Assembly (NCBI GenBank): GCA_043814095.1 | Contig: JBDRKI010000075.1 | Coordinates: forward strand, 424 to 64,423 | Direction of reading: 5' to 3' | Origin: Armatimonadota bacterium | GTDB lineage: Bacteria > Vulcanimicrobiota > JACPDS01 > JBDRKI01 | DNA length: 64,000 nucleotides | Shown: positions 1,111 to 57,701 of the stretch, piece after piece | Numbering within the stretch: the stretch's first letter is position 1 | Layout: every line of letters begins with the position of its first letter | Translations under genes and position numbers: made by a program | Notes under the pieces: model-generated | What the model saw: the letters and a program-made list of their open reading frames with translations, nothing else | What the model was told of the DNA's origin: nothing | The model's database searches: none

Positions 1111-2931
1111 ATGTGCGGTATAGTCGGATACATAGGCAAAAAACAAGTTATTCCCATACTCTTAAACGGCTTAAAGCTCCTGGAATACAGGGGATATGAC
1201 TCTTCCGGAGTCGCCGTATACAACGGCAACCATAAAATCCAGGAAAGAAAAAGCCTTGGCAAGCTTATAGAACTTGAAAACCTTTTAAAGGGACTGCCCT
1301 TGAAGGGCTCCCTTGGCATAGGCCATACACGCTGGGCAACTCACGGCAAGCCGTCCGACATGAACGCACACCCGCATCTTGACTGCCGCGGAAAAATAGC
1401 CGTGGTGCACAACGGTATCATAGAAAATTTTCTCCCCCTGCAGAATAAGCTTGAAAAAAGGGGACATAAATTTAAATCGGAAACAGATACTGAAATTTTA
1501 GCTCACTTAATTGAAGATAATTATACAGGCAGCATTGAGAAAGCGGTAAGAAAAGCATTGAAACAGGTGAGGGGTTCATACGCTCTAGGGGTAATATGCG
1601 TGGACGAACCGGACAAGATCGTCGCCGCGAGAAAAGACTCCCCCCTTATAATCGGTATAGGAAAACATGAAAACTACATAGCATCGGACATCCCTGCTTT
1701 TTTAAGCCATACGAAACGGGCCCTTCTTCTTTATGACGAAGAAATAGCTGTTATAACAAAAGATTCCGTAAAAATAACCGACCTTAACGGTAAAATAATA
1801 GCAAGAAAAAGCTTCGCCGTATCATGGTCGCAGGAACAGGCGTCAAAAGGCGGGTACAAGCATTTTATGCTTAAAGAAATATACGAGCAGCCGAAAATAA
1901 CCGCGGAAACTCTCTCGGGGAGGCTCCGCGGGGATATGTGTGTTGACCTTGAACACATAAAATTAAACAAGAATAAATTAAAAAAGATAAACAGAATATT
2001 TATGTCTGCCTGCGGAACAGCTTACCACGCGGCACTGATAGGAAAATATATAATAGAAGAAATAACAAAAATACCCTGCGAGGTTGACCTCGCGTCCGAA
2101 TTCAGATACAGAAAACCCGTCCTTGATAAAAAAACTCTCTTCATACCGATAAGCCAGTCAGGGGAAACAGCCGACACGCTGGCCGCAACAAGAGAAGCAA
2201 AAAGGCTCGGCGCCCACACACTTGCGATATGCAACGTAATGGGGAGTTCTCTTTCAAGGGAAACCCATGACACATTATACACAAGAGCCGGCATTGAGAT
2301 AGGAGTAGCGGCAACCAAAACTTTTATAGCACAGTTAATAGCCATCTATCTGCTTGCGTTCCATATAGCCCAGGAACTTTCAATTCATTATGACAGAAAA
2401 TATTTAAAAGAACTTTACAAGCTCCCGAACCTGATGGAAAAAATACTCGGAAGCCACGACGAAATAAAAAAATGGGCAAGAAAATACCATAACCGCTTCA
2501 ACTTCCTGTATCTCGGCAGGGGATTAAACTACCCTATCGCTCTTGAAGGCGCGTTAAAATTAAAAGAGATATCATACATGCACGCGGAAGGCTACGCGGC
2601 AGGGGAAATGAAGCACGGCCCTATAGCGCTTATAGACAAGCATGTACCTGTTGTGGGAATTCTTACAAAAAACCCTACTTATGATAAAATCGTAAATAAC
2701 GTAAAAGAAGTAAACGCAAGGGGCGGCATCCTGCTCGCGCTTGCAACGGAGAAAGACATCTACGTAAAAACCTTTGCGGATTATGTTTATTATCTTCCAA
2801 AAACAGTTCCTTTGTTTGACCCTATCTTAAACGTGATACCCCTGCAGCTTCTGGCATATTACATTGCGGATATAAAAAAGAGAGATGTTGATCAACCCAG
2901 GAATCTTGCGAAAAGCGTAACCGTAGAATAA
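1111..2931 (+). CDS. glmS: Glutamine--fructose-6-phosphate aminotransferase (isomerising)
   Basis: N-terminal MCGIVGY class-II amidotransferase Cys, two SIS domains, 606 aa. RBS-like GAGG upstream. Confidence 0.9.
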   Translation: MCGIVGYIGKKQVIPILLNGLKLLEYRGYDSSGVAVYNGNHKIQERKSLGKLIELENLLKGLPLKGSLGIGHTRWATHGKPSDMNAHPHLDCRGKIAVVHNGIIENFLPLQNKLEKRGHKFKSETDTEILAHLIEDNYTGSIEKAVRKALKQVRGSYALGVICVDEPDKIVAARKDSPLIIGIGKHENYIASDIPAFLSHTKRALLLYDEEIAVITKDSVKITDLNGKIIARKSFAVSWSQEQASKGGYKHFMLKEIYEQPKITAETLSGRLRGDMCVDLEHIKLNKNKLKKINRIFMSACGTAYHAALIGKYIIEEITKIPCEVDLASEFRYRKPVLDKKTLFIPISQSGETADTLAATREAKRLGAHTLAICNVMGSSLSRETHDTLYTRAGIEIGVAATKTFIAQLIAIYLLAFHIAQELSIHYDRKYLKELYKLPNLMEKILGSHDEIKKWARKYHNRFNFLYLGRGLNYPIALEGALKLKEISYMHAEGYAAGEMKHGPIALIDKHVPVVGILTKNPTYDKIVNNVKEVNARGGILLALATEKDIYVKTFADYVYYLPKTVPLFDPILNVIPLQLLAYYIADIKKRDVDQPRNLAKSVTVE

Positions 2932-2935
2932 AAAA

Positions 2936-2980
2936 ATCCCGTCGCGACTTTTATATCGTGGCGGGATATTTTTTTGTGAA
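2936..2980. terminator. Bidirectional rho-independent terminator between convergent glmS and the HU gene
   Basis: Inverted repeat ATCCCGTCGCGAC…CGTGGCGGGAT flanked by A-run and T-run. Confidence 0.5.
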
Positions 2981-2991
2981 CGCAACTTTTA

Positions 2992-3282
2992 TTATACTGC
3001 GCTTCTAAGATATTTGCCGGGTTTGAAATAAGGAACATTTCTGGCTTTAATTTTGATCGGTTCGCCGGTTCTCGGGTTTCTGCCGGTTCTTGAACTTCTC
3101 TTTCTTACTTCAAAGGATCCGAAAGGAATTAATCTAACCGGTGTGCCTTTTTTAAGGTTGGTTCTAACTCCTTCGATGAAGCTGTTTAAAGCTCTCTCTG
3201 AATCTCTCTTTGAAAGTTTGGTTTTGTCGGATATATAATTGATCATATCCTGTTTGCCCCAAGTCTTTGTTCTGGTTGCCAT
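2992..3282 (-). CDS. hup: HU/IHF-family nucleoid DNA-binding protein
   Basis: 96 aa. Typical HU fold sequence (…RLIPFGSFEVRKRSSRTGRNPRTGEPIKIKARNVPYFKPGK…). Confidence 0.8.
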   Translation of the reverse strand: MATRTKTWGKQDMINYISDKTKLSKRDSERALNSFIEGVRTNLKKGTPVRLIPFGSFEVRKRSSRTGRNPRTGEPIKIKARNVPYFKPGKYLRSAV

Positions 3283-3531
3283 CTCACTTCACCTCCCCTC
3301 TTTTTATAATTAAGGTGCGTATCAACACCTTGATAAACTTGCACTTTAGTATTCTATGGTCTTTTTGAAAATCCTCTTTTTCCCATCAAATATGGAGAAA
3401 AAATTTTTAATCGGCGAAAAACCTTTATTTTGCAAGGTTTTTAGATTTATCTTTTTTAAAAAAATAAAAAGGGTATTTCAATTTAAATCAAGAATGCTTC
3501 TACATCTCTATAAAATATTTTTAAGTTTTTT

Positions 3532-3927
3532 TTGAAAGGAGTGTGTGAAATTTTGAACAATCATCCTTTTCTGCGCTACAAATATAAAAATGGAATGATA
3601 GCGTGGGCGCTGCAGAGGCTCTCCGGTTTATGCCTCGCGTTTTATCTCGTTGCTCATCTTCTGGTTACGAGCTTGCTTATAAAAGGGCCGGCTTCTTTTG
3701 ACAAAATGATGGAGATGCTGCACAGCCCCATTACGGTTGCTCTTGAGATATGCCTTATAGGTGTTGTGATGTATCACGCTTTAAACGGGATAAGACTGGC
3801 TCTTTTAAGCTTCGGAGTTCCCACAAAATACCACAGTGCGCTATTCTGGATTTTAATGTTTATAGGGGTTGTCCTTTTCGCATTAAGCTGGTATGTGATT
3901 TTCCCGTGGGACGCGATCGGATTTTAA
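3532..3927 (+). CDS. sdhC: Succinate dehydrogenase/fumarate reductase cytochrome b subunit
   Basis: Three-TM small hydrophobic protein with conserved His (…MYHALNGIRL…) directly upstream of sdhD/A/B. The start codon is ambiguous: the track start is TTG, but an in-frame TTG at 3553, 11 nt after a GGAG, is more likely. Confidence 0.7.
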   Translation: MKGVCEILNNHPFLRYKYKNGMIAWALQRLSGLCLAFYLVAHLLVTSLLIKGPASFDKMMEMLHSPITVALEICLIGVVMYHALNGIRLALLSFGVPTKYHSALFWILMFIGVVLFALSWYVIFPWDAIGF

Positions 3928-3949
3928 AGTTTAATCGGAGGAATATGCT

Positions 3950-4309
3950 ATGAGTAAATTTAAAGCCGGGAGATTCCAGGGAATACTCTGGGGCTTCCAG
4001 ATATTATCGGGACTCTTTTTAGTGATAGTGCTCGGGATCCATTTCTGGTTCCTGCATTTTATAACAGGCGCGAGCAAGACCATGATAACTTATGAGGTGG
4101 TGGCGCAGAGACTGCGCACCCCTTTATGGAAAGCGATTGACACGATCTTCCTGCTTCTTGTTCTTTATCACGCGTTAAACGGCGTACGGGCTGTTCTTCT
4201 GGATTACAACTTAAGCAAAGGATTAAGAAAAACCCTTTTTGTGTTTTTTGCCGTACTGGCAGTCATCTGCTTCGTATTCGGGGTAAGGATAATAAATTCA
4301 ATTTACTAA
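3950..4309 (+). CDS. sdhD: Succinate dehydrogenase hydrophobic membrane anchor subunit
   Basis: 119 aa, 3 TM, LYHALNGVRAV motif. Operon position between sdhC and sdhA. Confidence 0.65.
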   Translation: MSKFKAGRFQGILWGFQILSGLFLVIVLGIHFWFLHFITGASKTMITYEVVAQRLRTPLWKAIDTIFLLLVLYHALNGVRAVLLDYNLSKGLRKTLFVFFAVLAVICFVFGVRIINSIY

Positions 4310-4335
4310 GACAGGACTTATAACGGAGGATATAG

Positions 4336-6045
4336 ATGAACGATATTATTAAACATGATGTTGTTATTATAGGTGGCGGTCTCGCGGGCATGAGAGCCGC
4401 TCTTGAGATATGCGACAATCATGATGTGGCAATTATATCAAAAGTGCACCCGGTAAGATCACATTCCGGCGCGGCGCAGGGCGGAATAGCCGCATCTCTG
4501 GGCAACGTGGCCGATGATGACTGGGAAAAACATATGTTTGACACGGTAAAGGGGAGTGATTATCTCGGAGACCAGGATGCAATAGAGATACTTGTTAAAG
4601 AAGCTCCCCAGAATATTATAGAGCTTGAACATATGGGTACGCCCTTTTCAAGAACCGAGAACGGCAGAATCGCGCAAAGGCCCTTCGGCGGACATTCCTC
4701 TCCCAGAGCCTGCTATGCGGCCGACTTAACAGGGCATGTAATACTCCATACATTATACGAGCAGATTATAAAGAAGAAAATAAAAGTATATTCCGAATTC
4801 TATGTGCTGGATATCATACTTAAAGACAATATCTGCCGCGGCCTTATAGGTTTTGACCTTACAACAGGCACCATACACACATTCCATTCAAAAGCCGTAA
4901 TGTTCGCAACAGGCGGTTACGGAAGAGCATTTAAAATAACCTCAAACGCGCACGCCAATACCGGAGACGGGTTAAGCATAATTTACAACCAGAGCCTCCC
5001 CATCCAGGATATGGAATTCGTGCAGTTCCACCCCACGGGATTATGGAAGCAGGGAATTCTCGTAACAGAAGGCGCGCGAGGCGAAGGCGGATACCTCTTA
5101 AACAAAGACGGCGAGCGGTTCATGAAGCGCTACGCGCCAAACATGATGGAAATAGCTCCCAGGGATGTAGTATCGCGCGCGATCCAGACAGAGATAAATG
5201 AAGGAAGGGGCATAGACGGAAAAGATTACGTGCATCTTGACCTGCGCCACTTAGGAAAAGAAAAAATTATGAAGCTCCTGCCCCAGATAAGAGAGCTTGC
5301 GATGGATTTTGTCGGAGTAGACTGCATTGAAGGCCCGATACCCATCCAGCCCACAGCCCATTATTCCATGGGGGGGATACCCGTAAATATAGACGGAAAC
5401 GTCATATCGGACGAAAAAGGAACTCTTATTACAGGATTATACGCCGCGGGAGAATGTTCGTGCGTGTCCGTTCACGGCGCGAACAGGCTGGGATGCAATT
5501 CCCTGCTTGAAGCAGTCGTATACGGAAGGCGTACCGGCAAATACATAAATGAATTTTTGCAAGACGCTAAATTAGAACTTCTTCCCGAAGAGGCTGACAA
5601 AAAAGTGCAGGATAAAATATCAAAACTTCTAAGCAGTGAAGGAACAGAGCTCCCTGCGAAAATACGCGAAGAACTGCAGGAAGTCATGTTCAAAAAATGC
5701 GGTGTTTACAGAAACGAAGACGACTTAAAAGACTGCCTGCAGGCGGTTAAAAAGCTTCAGGAAAGATTCAAAAAAGTCAAGATTGACGACAGAAGCAAGC
5801 TCTATAACACGGACTTAATTGAAACAATAGAACTCAGCCATCTTCTTGATTTCTCCGAAGTAATAGCAGCAGGCGCCCTGGCAAGAACAGAATCCCGGGG
5901 AGGCCACTCAAGAGTGGACTTCCCAAAAAGAGACGACGCGAACTGGCTGAAACATACCTTCGCGTATAAAACAGAAACAGGGCTGAAATTTACATATAAA
6001 GATGTAGCAATAACAAAATTCCAGCCGCAGGAAAGAAAGTATTAG
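4336..6045 (+). CDS. sdhA: Succinate dehydrogenase flavoprotein subunit
   Basis: FAD-binding GGGLAG motif, covalent-FAD His region ([11 protein letters not shown]), conserved HPTG and catalytic regions. 569 aa. Confidence 0.9.
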
Positions 6046-22861: not shown

Positions 22862-22941
22862 AAAATACTCCTTTTGGTAGCATTTTTCACTAAAAATTAC
22901 CCCACTTGACCTATATCCGTATACGCGGGGGGGGGTATAAT
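22862..22941 (+). promoter_or_regulatory. Conserved promoter module for family copy 1: AAAATACTCCTTTTGG motif, TTGACC box, G9 tract, TATAAT
   Basis: Motif 22862-22877, TTGACC 22906-22911, poly-G 22927-22935 (9 G), TATAAT 22936-22941. The same module lies upstream of the 25082 and 39879 genes. The 57595(-) copy keeps only the poly-G tract and TATAAT. Confidence 0.45.
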
Positions 22942-23033
22942 ATAGATGGGAAGAGGAAACAAGGTTTCTTACAACTGATATTTTATGGTAAAAAAGCCAT
23001 TAAATAAAATAAAAAGAACGGAGGTTAACCAAG

Positions 23034-23507
23034 GTGAAAAAACTACTTATAGCGCTTGTAGCGATAGCATTTCTGACAACAGCGGCATTTGCCGGGTCAA
23101 CTGACACACAGACTGTGTATTATGAGATTGATGCAATTAATGAACTTGTTTTTGGCGATGATACAACCTTAACAATGGACACTGCAACTGCAGGGGATGA
23201 ACCTTTTCACGATTTCAAATATCCTACCTATAACATTACTACTAACGAAGCTGCTAAAAAATTAACTGCTTCAATTAACGCAACAATGCCGAATCGTGTA
23301 TACTTCAGAGTAAAGGCAGAAGCACCAACCGGCGCTAGCAGTACCGGCTTACAATATATGAACACAACTGCCAAAAATCTTGTAACCGGTATTGAAACCG
23401 TAGTAGAGTCCGGTATAACTTATACCTTAAATACCTATGCATATGCTGATGCCGGTCTACCGCCTGATGGTTCAAGAGTCATAACCTTCACATTATGTGA
23501 CGAATAA
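23034..23507 (+). CDS. Small secreted protein, variable-core family copy 1 (157 aa)
   Basis: GTG start after a GGAGG RBS. Sec signal with AFA|GS cleavage site. Conserved STDTQTVYYEIDAINE N-terminus and LPPDGSRVITFTLCDE C-terminus shared with three paralogs. Divergent middle. Confidence 0.7.
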   Translation: MKKLLIALVAIAFLTTAAFAGSTDTQTVYYEIDAINELVFGDDTTLTMDTATAGDEPFHDFKYPTYNITTNEAAKKLTASINATMPNRVYFRVKAEAPTGASSTGLQYMNTTAKNLVTGIETVVESGITYTLNTYAYADAGLPPDGSRVITFTLCDE

Positions 23508-23533: not shown

Positions 23534-23560
23534 AAGCATACTCATGCGGTATGCTTTTTT
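23534..23560. terminator. Rho-independent terminator (AAGCATAC-loop-GTATGCTT plus T-run), bidirectional, shared with the convergent ATPase gene
   Basis: Perfect 8-bp stem followed by TTTTTT. An A-run precedes it on the other strand. Confidence 0.6.
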
Positions 23561-24906: not shown

Positions 24907-24988
24907 AAAATACTCCTTTTGACCTATGGTTTTAGTCGAAAATTGCCCCACTTGACCTATATCCGTATACGCGGGGGGGGGGTATAAT
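24907..24988 (+). promoter_or_regulatory. Conserved promoter module for family copy 2 (motif, TTGACC, G10 tract, TATAAT)
   Basis: Motif 24907-24924, TTGACC 24952-24957, poly-G 24973-24982 (10 G), TATAAT 24983-24988. Confidence 0.45.
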
Positions 24989-25081: not shown

Positions 25082-25564
25082 GTGAAAAAACTACTGATAG
25101 CACTTGTAGTAATAGTATTTCTAGCAGGAGCGGCATTTGCGGCATCAACAGATACCCAGACTGTGTATTATGAGATTGACGCGATAAATGAAATTGATCT
25201 TGATGTGGGTAGCTTAACATTAACAGTTGATTCAGTAGCACAAGCTGGATATCAGCCGGCTTCGGATGTTACCGATTGGATGTTATATGGTATTACAACT
25301 AATTCCACGGGTAAAAAAATAACCGGTTCAATTAATGCAAATGTACCAAGTAATTGTCAGTTGGAGGTTCTTTTGGAAGCCCCTAGCAATGCTGTTTCTA
25401 CGGGATTGAAAAATTTATATTTTCAAGCGACAAATTTAGTAACCAGTATTGAAACGGTTGCAGAAGGAGATGTTAGGTATCGTTTCTATTGGCACGCAAA
25501 TGTTGAAGCCGGTCTCCCCCCAGACGGCTCAAGAGTCGTAACCTACACATTAACGGATGAATAA
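25082..25564 (+). CDS. Small secreted protein, variable-core family copy 2 (160 aa)
   Basis: GTG start, GGAGG RBS. Same conserved termini (…STDTQTVYYEIDAINE… / …LPPDGSRVVTYTLTDE). Confidence 0.7.
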   Translation: MKKLLIALVVIVFLAGAAFAASTDTQTVYYEIDAINEIDLDVGSLTLTVDSVAQAGYQPASDVTDWMLYGITTNSTGKKITGSINANVPSNCQLEVLLEAPSNAVSTGLKNLYFQATNLVTSIETVAEGDVRYRFYWHANVEAGLPPDGSRVVTYTLTDE

Positions 25565-25592
25565 ACAGATATTTTAAGTTAGTGTTAAAAAA

Positions 25593-25620
25593 ACAGCTCC
25601 TTTTTGAGCTGTTTTTTTTA
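25593..25620. terminator. Rho-independent terminator (ACAGCTC-loop-GAGCTGT plus T8), bidirectional with ssrA
   Basis: Stem-loop followed by TTTTTTTT. ssrA 3' end abuts on the opposite strand. Confidence 0.6.
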
Positions 25621-25621
25621 A

Positions 25622-25981
25622 CTTTCTTTTCTGGTGGAGGTGGAGGGATTCGAACCCTCGTCCGAAAAGGTCCCCACAGAGATTCTACAAGCTTATTCCA
25701 GATTTTGTTTCTCGGCGCCCCGGCTCCTCTGAACAGGATCCGCAGAACCCAGCCCCTTTAATTTCCCGCTTAGATAAGAGGCGGTTTCAAAACGGTAAGC
25801 CATCCTATTTTGGCGCCCTTATTTAGGCCGGCTGGCGGACCTAAGAGGACGTAGCCGCGTTAAGCGGCTAGTGCTAATTCGTTATCAGCGTTTATTTGTT
25901 TTCTAACTTTTTAACGAGCTGTCAGCAACTCGGCCTGCTGCCTCTGCCAAAACACATCCCGTCGAAACCTTGTCACCCCCC
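25622..25981 (-). ncRNA. ssrA: tmRNA (transfer-messenger RNA, SsrA)
   Basis: Minus-strand 5' end GGGGGTGACAAGGTTTCGACGGG. 3' end GGTTCGAATCCCTCCACCTCCACCA (T-arm plus CCA). Internal tag reading frame GCT GAT AAC GAA TTA GCA CTA GCC GCT TAA gives (A)ADNELALAA*. smpB lies 1.6 kb away. Confidence 0.8.
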
Positions 25982-39586: not shown

Positions 39587-39699
39587 AATACCTACTTTAT
39601 TTTACATTCCCCTCTTTCTATTTTAACTTAAAAAAGTCCTTTTTTATTAAATAATGATATATAAAAAATATGGTAGCAATGCAATATTTATAATTTATA

Positions 39700-39786
39700 G
39701 GTCAAAAATACTCCTTTTGACCCATAGTTTTAGCCGAAAATTACCCCATTTGACCTATATCCGTAAATGCACGGGGGGGGTATAAT
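39700..39786 (+). promoter_or_regulatory. Conserved promoter module for family copy 3 (palindromic GGTCAAAAATACTCCTTTTGACC, TTGACC, G8 tract, TATAAT)
   Basis: Motif 39700-39722, TTGACC 39750-39755, poly-G 39773-39780 (8 G), TATAAT 39781-39786. Confidence 0.45.
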
Positions 39787-39878
39787 ATAAGTGGGAAGAG
39801 GAAACAAGGTTTCTTACAACAGATATTTTATGGTAAGAAAACCATTAAATAAAACAACAAGAAGGGAGGTTAACCACA

Positions 39879-40337
39879 GTGAAAAAACTACTGATAGCAC
39901 TTGTAGCAATTGTCTTTCTAGCAGGAGCGGCATTTGCAGGGTCAACAGATACTCAGACAATTTACTATGAGATTGATGCAATTAATGAGATTAGCTTTGA
40001 TACAAATATAACAATGACGGTTAATGCCGCAACAGCCGGTTCACAGCCAGCAGAAGTAAGTGTATGTTCTCTCGAATATAACATTACTACCAATGAAACC
40101 GGCAAGAAATTAACAGGCCAGCTTAATGCGAATATGCCGGGTAACACTACTCTTAAGGTTAATGTAGACGGCGGTGAAGTCGCATTATCAACCACCGCAA
40201 ATAATCTATACACTAATATTTCAACCATGGTAACAGCAGGCGACTGGTATTACAGCTTCTCTTTTCGAGCAACAGTCGCAGCCGGTCTCCCCCCAGACGG
40301 CTCAAGAGTCGTAACCTACACATTAACGGATGAATAA
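39879..40337 (+). CDS. Small secreted protein, variable-core family copy 3 (152 aa)
   Basis: GTG start, GGAGG RBS. Conserved termini (STDTQTIYYEIDAINE / LPPDGSRVVTYTLTDE). Confidence 0.7.
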   Translation: MKKLLIALVAIVFLAGAAFAGSTDTQTIYYEIDAINEISFDTNITMTVNAATAGSQPAEVSVCSLEYNITTNETGKKLTGQLNANMPGNTTLKVNVDGGEVALSTTANNLYTNISTMVTAGDWYYSFSFRATVAAGLPPDGSRVVTYTLTDE

Positions 40338-40364
40338 ACAGATATTTTAAGTTAGTGTTAAAAA

Positions 40365-40392
40365 AGACTGTTCGTTTTGAACAGTCTTTTTT
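40365..40392. terminator. Rho-independent terminator (GACTGTTC…GAACAGTC plus T-run)
   Basis: Stem-loop followed by TTTTTT directly after the conserved 3'UTR. Confidence 0.6.
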
Positions 40393-40430
40393 ATATAAAT
40401 CATACAAAATCAAAAAAAATTAATATGATC

Positions 40431-49382: not shown

Positions 49383-49471
49383 AAACTTTTCTCTTTTTTT
49401 TATTTAAAAATCTTTGTTTTACAATATTTTCCCTGTATTTCCGATAAAAACCCCCGCATGTTTCTTTAATA

Positions 49472-49522
49472 GGTCAAACGGAGTATTTTTATATGCTTTT
49501 TTACAAAATACTCCGTTTGACC
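49472..49522. promoter_or_regulatory. Perfect 18-bp inverted repeat (GGTCAAACGGAGTATTTT, 15-nt spacer, AAAATACTCCGTTTGACC), a double copy of the shared upstream motif
   Basis: The arms are exact reverse complements. Each arm matches the motif found upstream of the small-protein family and the 53693 gene. Lies about 85 nt upstream of the 49606 start. Confidence 0.5.
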
Positions 49523-49605
49523 GATACCCGCTTTATTTCCCCGATGGTAAAATAAAGTTAGGAGAACAAGAAATAAAGAAAATTTGACATAAAAGCGAGG
49601 GTTTT

Positions 49606-50580
49606 ATGAAAAAACAAATATTTTACGTATACCTGCTTATCTGTTTCGCTCTGCTAACCTTCGGCTGCGGGAGCGGCGGAGGAGGAGGCGGCGGCGGTGG
49701 CGGCGGCGGCACCTCCAGTGGAGGAAGCAGTACGCCCACTCCTACGCCCACGGCAACCGCGGAACCCGCAAATAATGGATCATTAATAGTATTATCAAAA
49801 GCTGACGGCTCCTTTTACGCGGTGCTTGCCGGTGTATGCGATTATCCCGGCTCGGTAAATGACTTAAACTATACCGCGAATGACGCCATAGATTTATATA
49901 ACTGCCTTAACGGCAGCAGTTTCTGGAGCGGGGTAACAGTATCAATAGAAAACGATATACACGTAACTTACGCGAAAATCCAGAACGCCGTGGCAACCGC
50001 AGCGGCGAATATCGCCGATGACGGCTTATTCGTATTCCTGTTCTCCGGACACGGTACAAATTCCGGAGGCATAGGATACCTGCTTCCTTATGACGGGATA
50101 AGCTCCTCATCGTGCAGAATAAGCGAAACTACCCTGCGCGTATGGCTTGACAGTTTTCCAACAAATTCAAAAAAATACATACTTATAGATTCCTGCTACA
50201 GCGGAGAATTTGTTGACATGTCGCCAAGGGGAGAAGAAGTCCTAACTTCCAAGTTTGTAGCAATAGAAGGATCTGATATTGCTTTCAGCAGGGATACGGC
50301 AAGATCCCTGGTCGGCGCGAACAATACTTATGTTATGGCTTCTTCCGCGGGAGACGAAGTAAGCTATGAATCAAGCCTGCTCCAGAACGGCGTATTCGGA
50401 TATTATGTGGCACAGGGGCTCGGCACGGGCGCTATAATAGGTCCGGCAGACGCGAACTTGAGCAATACTATAACCGCGGAAGAGATGACCGTATATGTAC
50501 CGCCTCTTGTAACGATTTATGTGGCAGGCCAGCATCCTCAATCTTATGATAATGTAATAGGCGATTTAAGAATAAAATAA
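49606..50580 (+). CDS. Caspase-like (peptidase C14, clan CD) domain lipoprotein with poly-Gly tether
   Basis: Signal peptide ending …LTFGC then G13. Caspase His (FLFSGHG) and Cys (LIDSCYSG) motifs. C-terminus …YDNVIGDLRIK shared with paralogs. Confidence 0.7.
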   Translation: MKKQIFYVYLLICFALLTFGCGSGGGGGGGGGGGGTSSGGSSTPTPTPTATAEPANNGSLIVLSKADGSFYAVLAGVCDYPGSVNDLNYTANDAIDLYNCLNGSSFWSGVTVSIENDIHVTYAKIQNAVATAAANIADDGLFVFLFSGHGTNSGGIGYLLPYDGISSSSCRISETTLRVWLDSFPTNSKKYILIDSCYSGEFVDMSPRGEEVLTSKFVAIEGSDIAFSRDTARSLVGANNTYVMASSAGDEVSYESSLLQNGVFGYYVAQGLGTGAIIGPADANLSNTITAEEMTVYVPPLVTIYVAGQHPQSYDNVIGDLRIK

Positions 50581-53592: not shown

Positions 53593-53613
53593 CAAAAATA
53601 CTCCTTTTGGTCC
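53593..53613 (+). promoter_or_regulatory. Shared upstream motif copy (CAAAAATACTCCTTTTGGTCC), about 80 nt upstream of the 53693 gene
   Basis: 18/20 identity with the motif at 22862, 24907, 39700 and 49505. Confidence 0.4.
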
Positions 53614-53692
53614 CTCAAAATAGGTCTTTTGATGGATATTTTTATAATCTTCCCGGGCTTATAATATTAATAGGAAGCCGTAAAAAAAGGAG

Positions 53693-54751
53693 ATGATTGT
53701 TATGAACCTCTCCCAAAACATAAAAAAAACACTTAAAAGCTCAATTTTTTTAGGTTTAGCTGCGATCGCCGCCCTTATAATCACCGCTCTCGTAGGATGC
53801 GGTGGCGGCGGAGGAGGAACAGGCGGCGGCGGCGGAGTATCTGCCGGAAACCCGCCCGCCATACTTTTACCGGATTACACCCCTCCCCCTGCGCCTGATA
53901 CGCACAGCGATGACCCGCCCCCGCCCGAAGAAACTTCAACAAAAGCATTTGTCATACTCGTAGGCATGGCAGACTACCCCGGGACCATAAACGACCTGCG
54001 TTATACCGCTAAAGACGCTCAAGATGTTTACAACTGCCTGATATCTTCAAGCGTATGGGGCGAAGCCACATTCAAAGTCTTTTTAAATTCCAACGCGACA
54101 AAAAGCGCTATCGCAAACGCTTTTTCCGAAGCCAAAAACACTTTAGATGATGACGGTATATTCTTATTCTACTATTCCGGGCACGGTACTAATTCGGGCA
54201 CAACTGGCTATATAATTCCTTACGATGCTCTTACATGGGAAGGATTTATAAACCAGTCCAACCTCATAAGCGGTGATGATTTAAACTCTTACTTAAGCCA
54301 GCTTCCCGAAACCGTAAAGAAATATGTAGCATCTGATTCATGCCACAGCGGATACCTTATAGGCGCGAGATCCGAATTTGATACTGCTGAAAATAAAGTT
54401 AAATTTGTTCCCATGGCCGATTCCAATCCCGGCTACAGCGAAGAAGAATTCGCCAGATCCATTGTGGGAACTTCAAACTGCTATGTAATGACTTCCTCAA
54501 GCGGAACTGAATTAAGCTGGGAAACCAGCATACTGCAGGCGGGAGTATTCAGTTACTATCTCTGCCAGGGACTCGGCAACGGCAGCGCCCTGGGCGCAGG
54601 AGATATTAACTCCGACAGCACAATAACAGCTGAAGAATTATCCGTCTATGTTCCCCCGGCCGTAAGCAATTATATTTCAAGTCATATAGAAGGGTATACA
54701 CAGACTCCTCAAAGTTATGATAACTTTGAAGGCGAGTTAAGGGTAAAATAA
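53693..54751 (+). CDS. Caspase-like (C14) domain lipoprotein with Gly/Pro-rich tether
   Basis: Lipobox LVGC plus GGGGGGTGGGGG. Motifs YYSGHG / SDSCHSG. C-terminal YDNFEGELRVK. Confidence 0.7.
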   Translation: MIVMNLSQNIKKTLKSSIFLGLAAIAALIITALVGCGGGGGGTGGGGGVSAGNPPAILLPDYTPPPAPDTHSDDPPPPEETSTKAFVILVGMADYPGTINDLRYTAKDAQDVYNCLISSSVWGEATFKVFLNSNATKSAIANAFSEAKNTLDDDGIFLFYYSGHGTNSGTTGYIIPYDALTWEGFINQSNLISGDDLNSYLSQLPETVKKYVASDSCHSGYLIGARSEFDTAENKVKFVPMADSNPGYSEEEFARSIVGTSNCYVMTSSSGTELSWETSILQAGVFSYYLCQGLGNGSALGAGDINSDSTITAEELSVYVPPAVSNYISSHIEGYTQTPQSYDNFEGELRVK

Positions 54752-57120: not shown

Positions 57121-57595
57121 TTATTCATCCGTCAGGGTGAAGGTTATGACTCTTGAGCCGTCCGGCGAAAGACCGGCTTCGACAATAGCACTTAAATAAA
57201 TGGTATAATATGATTCTGCTGCATTTGTTTCAATGCTGGTTATTGCGCTTTGAGCGGTGGTATTTAAAGTTACTATGCCGGGGCAAGAACAGCCACTCGG
57301 TGCAGACAAATACACCTTAAGAGTTACTCCGCTTGGCATAGTTGAATTAATTGCCGCAGTTATTTTTTTTTGCTGTTCCGTTTGTGGTAAGATAGTAATC
57401 TTGCACGCCTGTGCTATCACCGGCCGGTCCCGTACCAGCCCCTCCATGATCAATTGTTAAGGTTACATCCGCGCCAAATGCAATCTCATTAATCGCATCT
57501 ATTTCATAATAGATTGTCTGGGTATCTGTTGATGCCGCAAATGCTACCGCTGTTAGAAATGCTATAGCTACAAGTGCTATAAGTAGTTTTTTCAC
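57121..57595 (-). pseudogene. Small secreted protein family copy 4, frameshifted within an A9 homopolymer
   Basis: Two overlapping minus-strand ORFs (57347-57595 and 57121-57453). They carry the family N-terminus (…STDTQTIYYEIDAINE…) and C-terminus (…SPDGSRVITFTLTDE) respectively. The junction is an A9 tract (plus-strand T9 at 57372-57380). With A8 the frame would read …TAKKITAAINSTMPSG…, as in the paralogs (KKITGSIN / KKLTASIN). Confidence 0.7.
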
Positions 57596-57686: not shown

Positions 57687-57701
57687 ATTATACCCCCCCC
57701 C
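57687..57701 (-). promoter_or_regulatory. TATAAT preceded by a G9 tract (minus strand): promoter of family copy 4
   Basis: Plus-strand ATTATA then C9 (57693-57701). The reverse complement gives G9-TATAAT-ATAGGTGGGAAGAGGAAACAAGG…, the same as the other copies. The region upstream of it has diverged. Confidence 0.4.

Follow-up and report, generated by a model that had tools for sequence, protein, structure and literature searches.

The window analysed here, a stretch of 64,000 nt, contains four copies of a small-protein gene that belongs to a family of at least 18 paralogs (50–63% identity) in the Armatimonadota MAG (locus tags ABIH00_). Each of the four is a self-contained cassette of approximately 0.7 kb formed by promoter, 5′UTR, ORF and terminator. 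The 5′UTR is approximately 100 nt long with two predicted hairpins, the first of which starts at the predicted transcription start, and is followed by a strong ribosome-binding site, a GTG start codon, an ORF of 152–160 aa, a conserved 3′UTR and the terminator. A homopolymeric run of G residues directly adjoins TATAATATA in all four copies. The features of the cassettes are as follows.

Copy 1, 22898–22911 (+): proximal box TACCCCACTTGACC, with TTGACC at 22906–22911, 24 nt from the −10 element
Copy 1, 22927–22935 (+): poly-G tract (G9), at predicted positions −13 to −21
Copy 1, 22936–22941 (+): −10 element TATAAT, within the invariant TATAATATA
Copy 1, 22946–23006 (+): 5′UTR, with hairpins at 22946–22972 and 22979–23006 (RNAalifold prediction)
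Copy 1, 23034–23507 (+): ORF (P0001), 157 aa, signal peptide and predicted pilin-like beta-sandwich
Copy 1, 23536–23560 (+): terminator hairpin and T run
Copy 2, 24911–24924 (+): distal box TACTCCTTTTGACC, 33 nt 5′ of the proximal box
Copy 2, 24944–24957 (+): proximal box, with TTGACC at 24952–24957, 25 nt from the −10 element
Copy 2, 24973–24982 (+): poly-G tract (G10), the rest of the spacer being that of copy 1
Copy 2, 24983–24988 (+): −10 element TATAAT
Copy 2, 25082–25564 (+): ORF (P0012), 160 aa
Copy 2, 25587–25627 (+): terminator
Copy 3, 39709–39722 (+): distal box, at the centre of a near-perfect palindrome, ATAGGTCAAAA-ATACTCC-TTTTGACCCAT
Copy 3, 39742–39755 (+): proximal box, with TTGACC at 39750–39755, 25 nt from the −10 element
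Copy 3, 39773–39780 (+): poly-G tract (G8), with two extra spacer bases (ATGCAC versus ACGC) that bring the total to 25
Copy 3, 39781–39786 (+): −10 element TATAAT
Copy 3, 39879–40337 (+): ORF (P0015), 152 aa
Copy 3, 40366–40392 (+): terminator
Copy 4, 57693–57701 (−): poly-G tract (G9; C9 on the + strand), without upstream proximal box
Copy 4, 57687–57692 (−): −10 element TATAAT
Copy 4, 57121–57595 (−): ORF, the sole defect of which is a +1 frameshift in an A9 run
Copy 4, 57363–57371 (−): the A9 run (T9 on the + strand), the only 9-nt A/T run in the window

The RNAalifold support for the 5′UTR hairpins consists of one-sided G-U/G-C changes and one compensatory pair; transcription is predicted to start at GGGAAG, 6–8 nt past TATAAT. 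The terminators of copies 1–3 lie at the same position after a 97%-conserved 3′UTR segment and have entirely different stem sequences so that, as read from the three copies, the structure is retained and the sequence replaced. All four cassettes are divergent from their upstream neighbour, namely a 141-aa protein gene, a DUF4143 ATPase gene, the CdaA gene and tRNA-Pro, respectively (coordinates, 22815/23034, 24816/25082, 39586/39879 and 57595/57839). The end of copy 2 and the 3′ end of the tmRNA gene are 14 nt apart, and the start of copy 4 adjoins tRNA-Pro. Genes for DUF4143/AAA_14 ATPases are present in two of the cassette neighbourhoods; a link between cassettes and ATPases was considered and set aside, since the two ATPases are only 32% identical and their presence is probably a coincidence.

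The encoded protein carries a signal peptide and gave no match in Pfam and NCBIfam searches. Its AlphaFold model, obtained from a 24-sequence alignment with a pLDDT of 85.5, shows an Ig-like pilin fold with an N-terminal extension after the signal peptide and resembles donor-strand-exchange pilins, the same set being returned by Foldseek with weak E-values. The product is a predicted surface and variable determinant, as expected for a simple-sequence-repeat (SSR) contingency locus. In other phyla, the homologs (35–48% identity) occupy the first position in a conserved operon of four genes. Its hosts include Verrucomicrobiota, Deltaproteobacteria, Marinobacterium and others (loci L001, L003, L007, L009, L010, L015 and L026; approximately 2500–5400 in each locus), and its unannotated products are of approximately 160 aa, approximately 155 aa, approximately 267 aa and more than 360 aa. 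The fourth of these proteins gives matches to PapD-like/ASH-type Ig domains (Cep192_D3, HYDIN-type), and no recognizable usher was found. The four-gene operon may be an undescribed fibre-assembly system. None of the operon partner genes is present within the 64-kb window, which points to the amplification of the subunit gene as orphan cassettes in this MAG.

That the cassettes are insertions is indicated by the neighbourhood of copy 3. The nearest relatives identified through the flanking cdaA gene (71–74% identical) are without the cassette; in one of them (L022, CdaA 71% identical; 3374–3416) speE is directly followed by cdaA with a 41-nt gap, whereas in the window the copy 3 cassette (39587–40430) sits at the speE/cdaA junction on the opposite strand. 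The tract itself was not encountered outside the MAG: a protein-guided scan of a GTDB genome collection, which excludes the source MAG, covered 21 loci in other phyla and detected no run of 7 G/C or longer 5′ of the distant homologs; P0019, at 44% identity the closest homolog outside the MAG, is found on six contigs in the standard operon with no tract, and the conserved promoter and 5′UTR patterns gave 0 matches in two metagenome scans and one viral scan.

A homopolymer census identified the four tracts as the only G/C runs of 8 nt or longer in the window, the next longest being one G7 (5370–5376) and eleven runs of 6, with approximately 0.55 runs of 8 or longer expected per 64 kb from the extrapolated run-length distribution. 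Re-reading of the sequence reproduced exactly the coordinates and the lengths (G9, G10, G8 and G9) that the initial annotation had placed at TATAAT. The GC content of approximately 38% given there needs to be corrected to the 41.1% measured for the window. For the accompanying argument, that a G8–10 run at the same position in every paralog is very unlikely by chance, a set of independent coincidences is the wrong null, since the four sites are paralogous; more weight attaches to the retention of the tract, considered below. The further statements that the tract sits in a promoter spacer, with a conserved box on its upstream side and a consensus −10 element following it, and that TTGACC lies 24, 25 and 25 nt 5′ of TATAAT in copies 1–3 while being absent from copy 4, were both borne out.

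Inspection of the upstream region showed that TTGACC forms the 3′ end of a box that is longer and partly palindromic, AAAATAC[T/C]CCN[T/C]TTGACC. Copies 1–3 each have two of these boxes, one proximal and one distal, 33 nt from one another. Counted from the last base of TTGAnn up to the −10 element, the spacers are built as follows.

Copy 1 spacer, 24 nt: 15 nt plus G9
Copy 2 spacer, 25 nt: the same 15 nt as in copy 1 plus G10
Copy 3 spacer, 25 nt: 17 nt plus G8

No −35-like hexamer is found 16–18 bp upstream of TATAAT at the tract-bearing genes, and a canonical sigma-70 promoter was, therefore, rejected for the cassettes. Canonical promoters do occur in the same DNA, at the tmRNA gene (TTGCCT-17-TGcTATAAT) and at two DUF4143 genes (TTGACA-17-TAAAAT), so that the organism uses the 17-bp arrangement and the cassette promoters form a different class. 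The box recurs at two other promoters, both preceding genes for Peptidase_C14 proteins, which are unrelated to the fibre genes.

49509–49553 (+): box, 25-nt non-repetitive spacer and TAAAAT (49548–49553), 5′ of the Peptidase_C14 gene at 49606–50580
53599–53665 (+): distal box (2 mismatches), degenerate proximal TTGATG (53629–53634), 25-nt non-repetitive spacer and TATAAT (53660–53665), 5′ of the Peptidase_C14 gene at 53693–54751

Three Peptidase_C14 (caspase-domain) genes cluster at 49.6–54.8 kb. The box at 49.5 kb is one of an inverted pair (49472–49485 on the − strand and 49509–49522 on the + strand). Downstream of the inverted twin, on the minus strand at 49430–49485, TTGACCtattaaagaaacatGCGGGGGtttttatcgg resembles a fibre promoter; the site carries no more than G5 and a degenerate −10, is not followed by a gene, and may be what is left of a decayed cassette promoter.

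The spacing histogram of TTGA[CT][CAG]-N-TA[TA]AAT across the window shows no peaks other than N17 (2 sites) and N25 (5 sites), with approximately 0.35 sites expected per spacing and a maximum of 2 in 300 simulations; one of the five N25 sites, located inside a gene, is probably due to chance. The spacers of the caspase-domain genes differ in sequence and share the length of 25 nt, which implies that spacer length is constrained in this promoter class. They are also non-homopolymeric, so that the class can do without a pure G run, and purity is something that the fibre genes have in addition. From these spacings, the box-to-(−10) distance appears to be held to 25 nt in a class defined by two independent non-fibre promoters and one probable chance match inside a gene besides the fibre genes, so that the gain or loss of one G should matter. 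The box looks like an activator site, and its presence at the fibre genes and at two Peptidase_C14 genes suggests a shared regulon served by a non-canonical box-N25-(−10) promoter class.

The extent of divergence among the copies provides a measure of how unusual the conservation of the tract is. In the best-conserved parts of the coding sequence, four-fold degenerate sites are 25–58% different between copies (pooled, 38%), a level at which a neutral stretch of 8 nt would almost never be identical in four copies. The tract is, nevertheless, uninterrupted in 4/4 copies though its length differs. Mean pairwise identity is 0.88–0.90 for the 30-nt core promoter that includes the tract, 0.88–0.91 for the ribosome-binding site and signal peptide, only 0.23–0.57 for the mid-coding sequence, and again 0.84–0.97 for the C-terminus and 3′UTR. 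Recent gene conversion was rejected as the cause of tract identity, as 31% of the codons for identical amino acids and 38% of the four-fold sites differ, even in the conserved ends. On the strength of this comparison, the purity of the tract is constrained.

The lengths of the tracts, as read from one consensus assembly and for four copies of a family with at least 18 paralogs in the MAG, reach the value (approximately 8 G/C or more) at which such runs are hypermutable in other bacteria (threshold from PMC1891110 and PMC7864442), and may be so in this organism as well. The initial annotation took the length differences between paralogs to show that the tract is mutable. They do testify to change over evolutionary time, but are no proof of a high switching rate. 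A model of the Neisseria type, with tract length tuning a sigma-70 −35/−10 distance near 17 bp, had to be abandoned, given a spacing of 24–25 and no −35 at 16–18 bp.

Our preferred reading, to which we assign a somewhat better than even chance, is that the tract gives a variable length to the spacer separating the −10 element from an activator-type box, and that it is switched by slippage. The promoter, with a consensus TATAAT and no −35, would depend on an activator probably bound at one or two copies of the box and required at a precise position, exactly 25 nt from the end of TTGACC to the start of the −10. The G8–10 run would occupy the promoter-proximal part of this spacer, at predicted positions −13 to −21/−22, and slipped-strand mispairing at replication would add or remove one G, displacing the box by 3.4 angstroms and approximately 34 degrees relative to RNA polymerase so that the register is gained or lost. 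Copies 2 and 3 (N25) would be in register and copy 1 (N24) one G short. Independent switching of each copy would result in a combinatorial, stochastic choice among hypervariable pilin-like subunits of a surface fibre. The single difference between the spacers of copies 1 and 2 is in fact one G, while copy 3 offsets its G8 by a 2-nt insertion and still measures 25. The single G by which copies 1 and 2 differ may also have become fixed as a neutral change or, with lower probability, stem from an error of assembly.

Copy 4 departs from the other three in two respects. Removal of one A from its A9 run restores a 157-aa protein; at the matching Lys-Lys codon site the run is A6 in copy 1 and A7 in copy 2, and it is interrupted in copy 3. 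The A9 run could act as a further slip switch, at the level of translation, or else mark a recent pseudogene or an error of assembly; that one homopolymer slip is the sole defect of this ORF was counted in favour of the slippage reading. The absence of the proximal box is consistent with a 27-nt deletion between CCG repeats. Copy 4 holds G9 without the proximal box, so that retention of the tract is not strictly box-dependent.

Among the systems described, the promoters of the Bordetella fim2, fim3, fimX and fimN genes combine a fim box, a C-stretch and a −10 element, the gain or loss of one C switching expression (PMC10172299, PMC1891110). As in the present case, they serve paralogous genes for pilin-type major subunits that are orphan and away from the assembly genes, have a conserved upstream box and a G/C homopolymer before the −10 but lack a functional −35 at 17 bp, and the box-to-(−10) distance is well above 17 bp (literature threshold, approximately 22; PMC10172299, PMC1891110). 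The fim box belongs to a wider regulon; the recurrence of the present box at two Peptidase_C14 genes would be consistent with a candidate regulon here. There are also differences: the phylum is not the same, and the present organism is environmental and uncultured and was read from its sequence alone; the fim promoters are activated by the response regulator BvgA, whereas the box found here is unrelated to BvgA sites; the tracts are of 8–10 rather than 7–22 nt, and the copies at least 18 rather than 3–4. Since the box resembles an activator site and recurs at other genes, the fim promoters would seem to be a closer analogue than those of the Neisseria porA type and, of the systems compared, the nearest in design.

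In the tpr genes of T. pallidum, G7–11 tracts vary within isolates, and 8 versus 10 G alters promoter activity (PMC7864442). The similarity of tpr/tp0126 with the cassettes lies in a paralogous surface-protein family, a G7–12 tract in the core promoter and 8–10 G as the relevant range. However, the tprL tract overlaps the −10 region, with the start 4 nt downstream, and that of tp0126 tunes a 17-bp −35/−10 spacer, whereas in the cassettes the tract is separated from the predicted start by a complete TATAAT, with a spacing of 25. Neisseria meningitidis porA (poly-G) and opc (poly-C) likewise have a G/C homopolymer in the promoter of a surface protein, with volume control by slippage. The porA tract, however, is the sigma-70 −35/−10 spacer itself, with an optimum of 17 bp, unlike the present TTGACC at 24–25 bp without a −35 at 16–18 bp, and a porA-type spacer switch was, therefore, dismissed. 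The Mycoplasma hyorhinis vlp genes form a variable surface multigene family in which the highly conserved 5′ region of each gene includes a homopolymer in the promoter, with combinatorial independent switching. The vlp tract is reportedly, unlike the present one, a poly-A in a conventional −35/−10 spacer, and the products lipoproteins rather than pilin-like subunits. The vlp system is listed in a review (PMC11868660).

The slippage reading needs to be weighed against others. The tract may be a static GC-rich spacer or clamp element, or a protein-recognition site, the length differences of which are tolerated with no regulatory consequence. We regard this as rather unlikely, although the promoters of the caspase-domain genes are also GC-rich just 5′ of the −10 (TTCCCGGGCT, TCCCCGATGG) and copy 4 retains G9 in spite of having lost the box. 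Indeed, the same caspase promoters indicate that the class works with non-homopolymeric sequence, which leaves the purity of the run unexplained by a static element; the length of 25 nt is reached by two routes (G10, or G8 plus 2 nt), implying that length matters, and G8–10 tracts are slippage-prone in every bacterium where they have been examined (PMC7864442, PMC1891110). It is improbable that the length differences and the A9 frameshift are homopolymer errors of sequencing or assembly, the true lengths being equal. Homopolymers are the classic site of such errors, a single consensus is at hand, and the one frameshift of the family falls in the longest A run; however, long ORFs are intact in spite of 14 A8 and 41 A7 runs in the window, which speaks for an accurate homopolymer consensus, and the G8 of copy 3 comes with substitutions and a 2-nt indel beside the tract, so that the copies truly differ. 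Even equal lengths would leave the tract and its position standing.

A different type of promoter (an upstream sigma-I-like or other one, A-tract/CCCC ... CGTA, with the G run at or after the start and reiterative transcription) or a G-quadruplex or hairpin structure was given very little credence. What favours it is that CCGTA is invariant in 4/4 copies, that the proximal box has an A-tract and CCCC, and that G-rich segments follow the −10. The sigma-I consensus consists of CCCC, then AAA, 13–15 N and CGWA (PMC4711584), but here the order of the elements is reversed, their distance is approximately 10 nt, and the caspase promoters that share the box have no CGWA; a sigma-I-dependent promoter was rejected on these grounds. 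A hairpin or cruciform between the tract and the upstream CCCC was also discarded, as single-strand DNA folds no better than shuffles (z −0.4 to +0.6), and a G8–10 run cannot provide the four G runs of a quadruplex, the next GGG being 12 nt away. Neither at the curated gathering thresholds nor at E up to 1 was there an Rfam match in the 5′UTR or promoter, and the invariant TATAAT is at the right distance from the 5′-terminal hairpin, which argues against another promoter.

If slippage at the tract is taken as the starting point, a broader picture can be drawn, which we put forward tentatively and consider possible, if doubtful, as a whole. It would be a full contingency system of at least 19 orphan cassettes for hypervariable subunits of an uncharacterized, widely distributed pilus-like fibre, each with its own poly-G tract of adjustable length and with a hitherto undescribed box-N25-(−10) promoter class, lacking a −35, that is shared with caspase-like proteases. 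One or more copies would also have a poly-A slip site in the coding sequence, and the system would serve the stochastic display of varying subunit combinations, plausibly for phage evasion.

Promoter homopolymer switches on surface-protein families are well documented, but almost exclusively from host-restricted pathogens, for example Bordetella, Neisseria, Treponema, Mycoplasma and Campylobacter, and a full-text literature search returned no paper in which Armatimonadota and phase variation appear together. If confirmed, the cassettes described here would indicate that bet-hedging of the same design arose in an uncultured lineage of free-living bacteria, in which phage or grazers, not antibodies, would be the likely selective pressure. 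They would also provide a testable regulatory logic for an unannotated pilin-like family found across many phyla, as well as for the promoter class with the 25-nt spacing and for the candidate regulon of fibre and caspase-like protease genes. The broader picture drawn above would, if true, give this phylum its first SSR phase-variation system as well as its first defined non-canonical promoter class.
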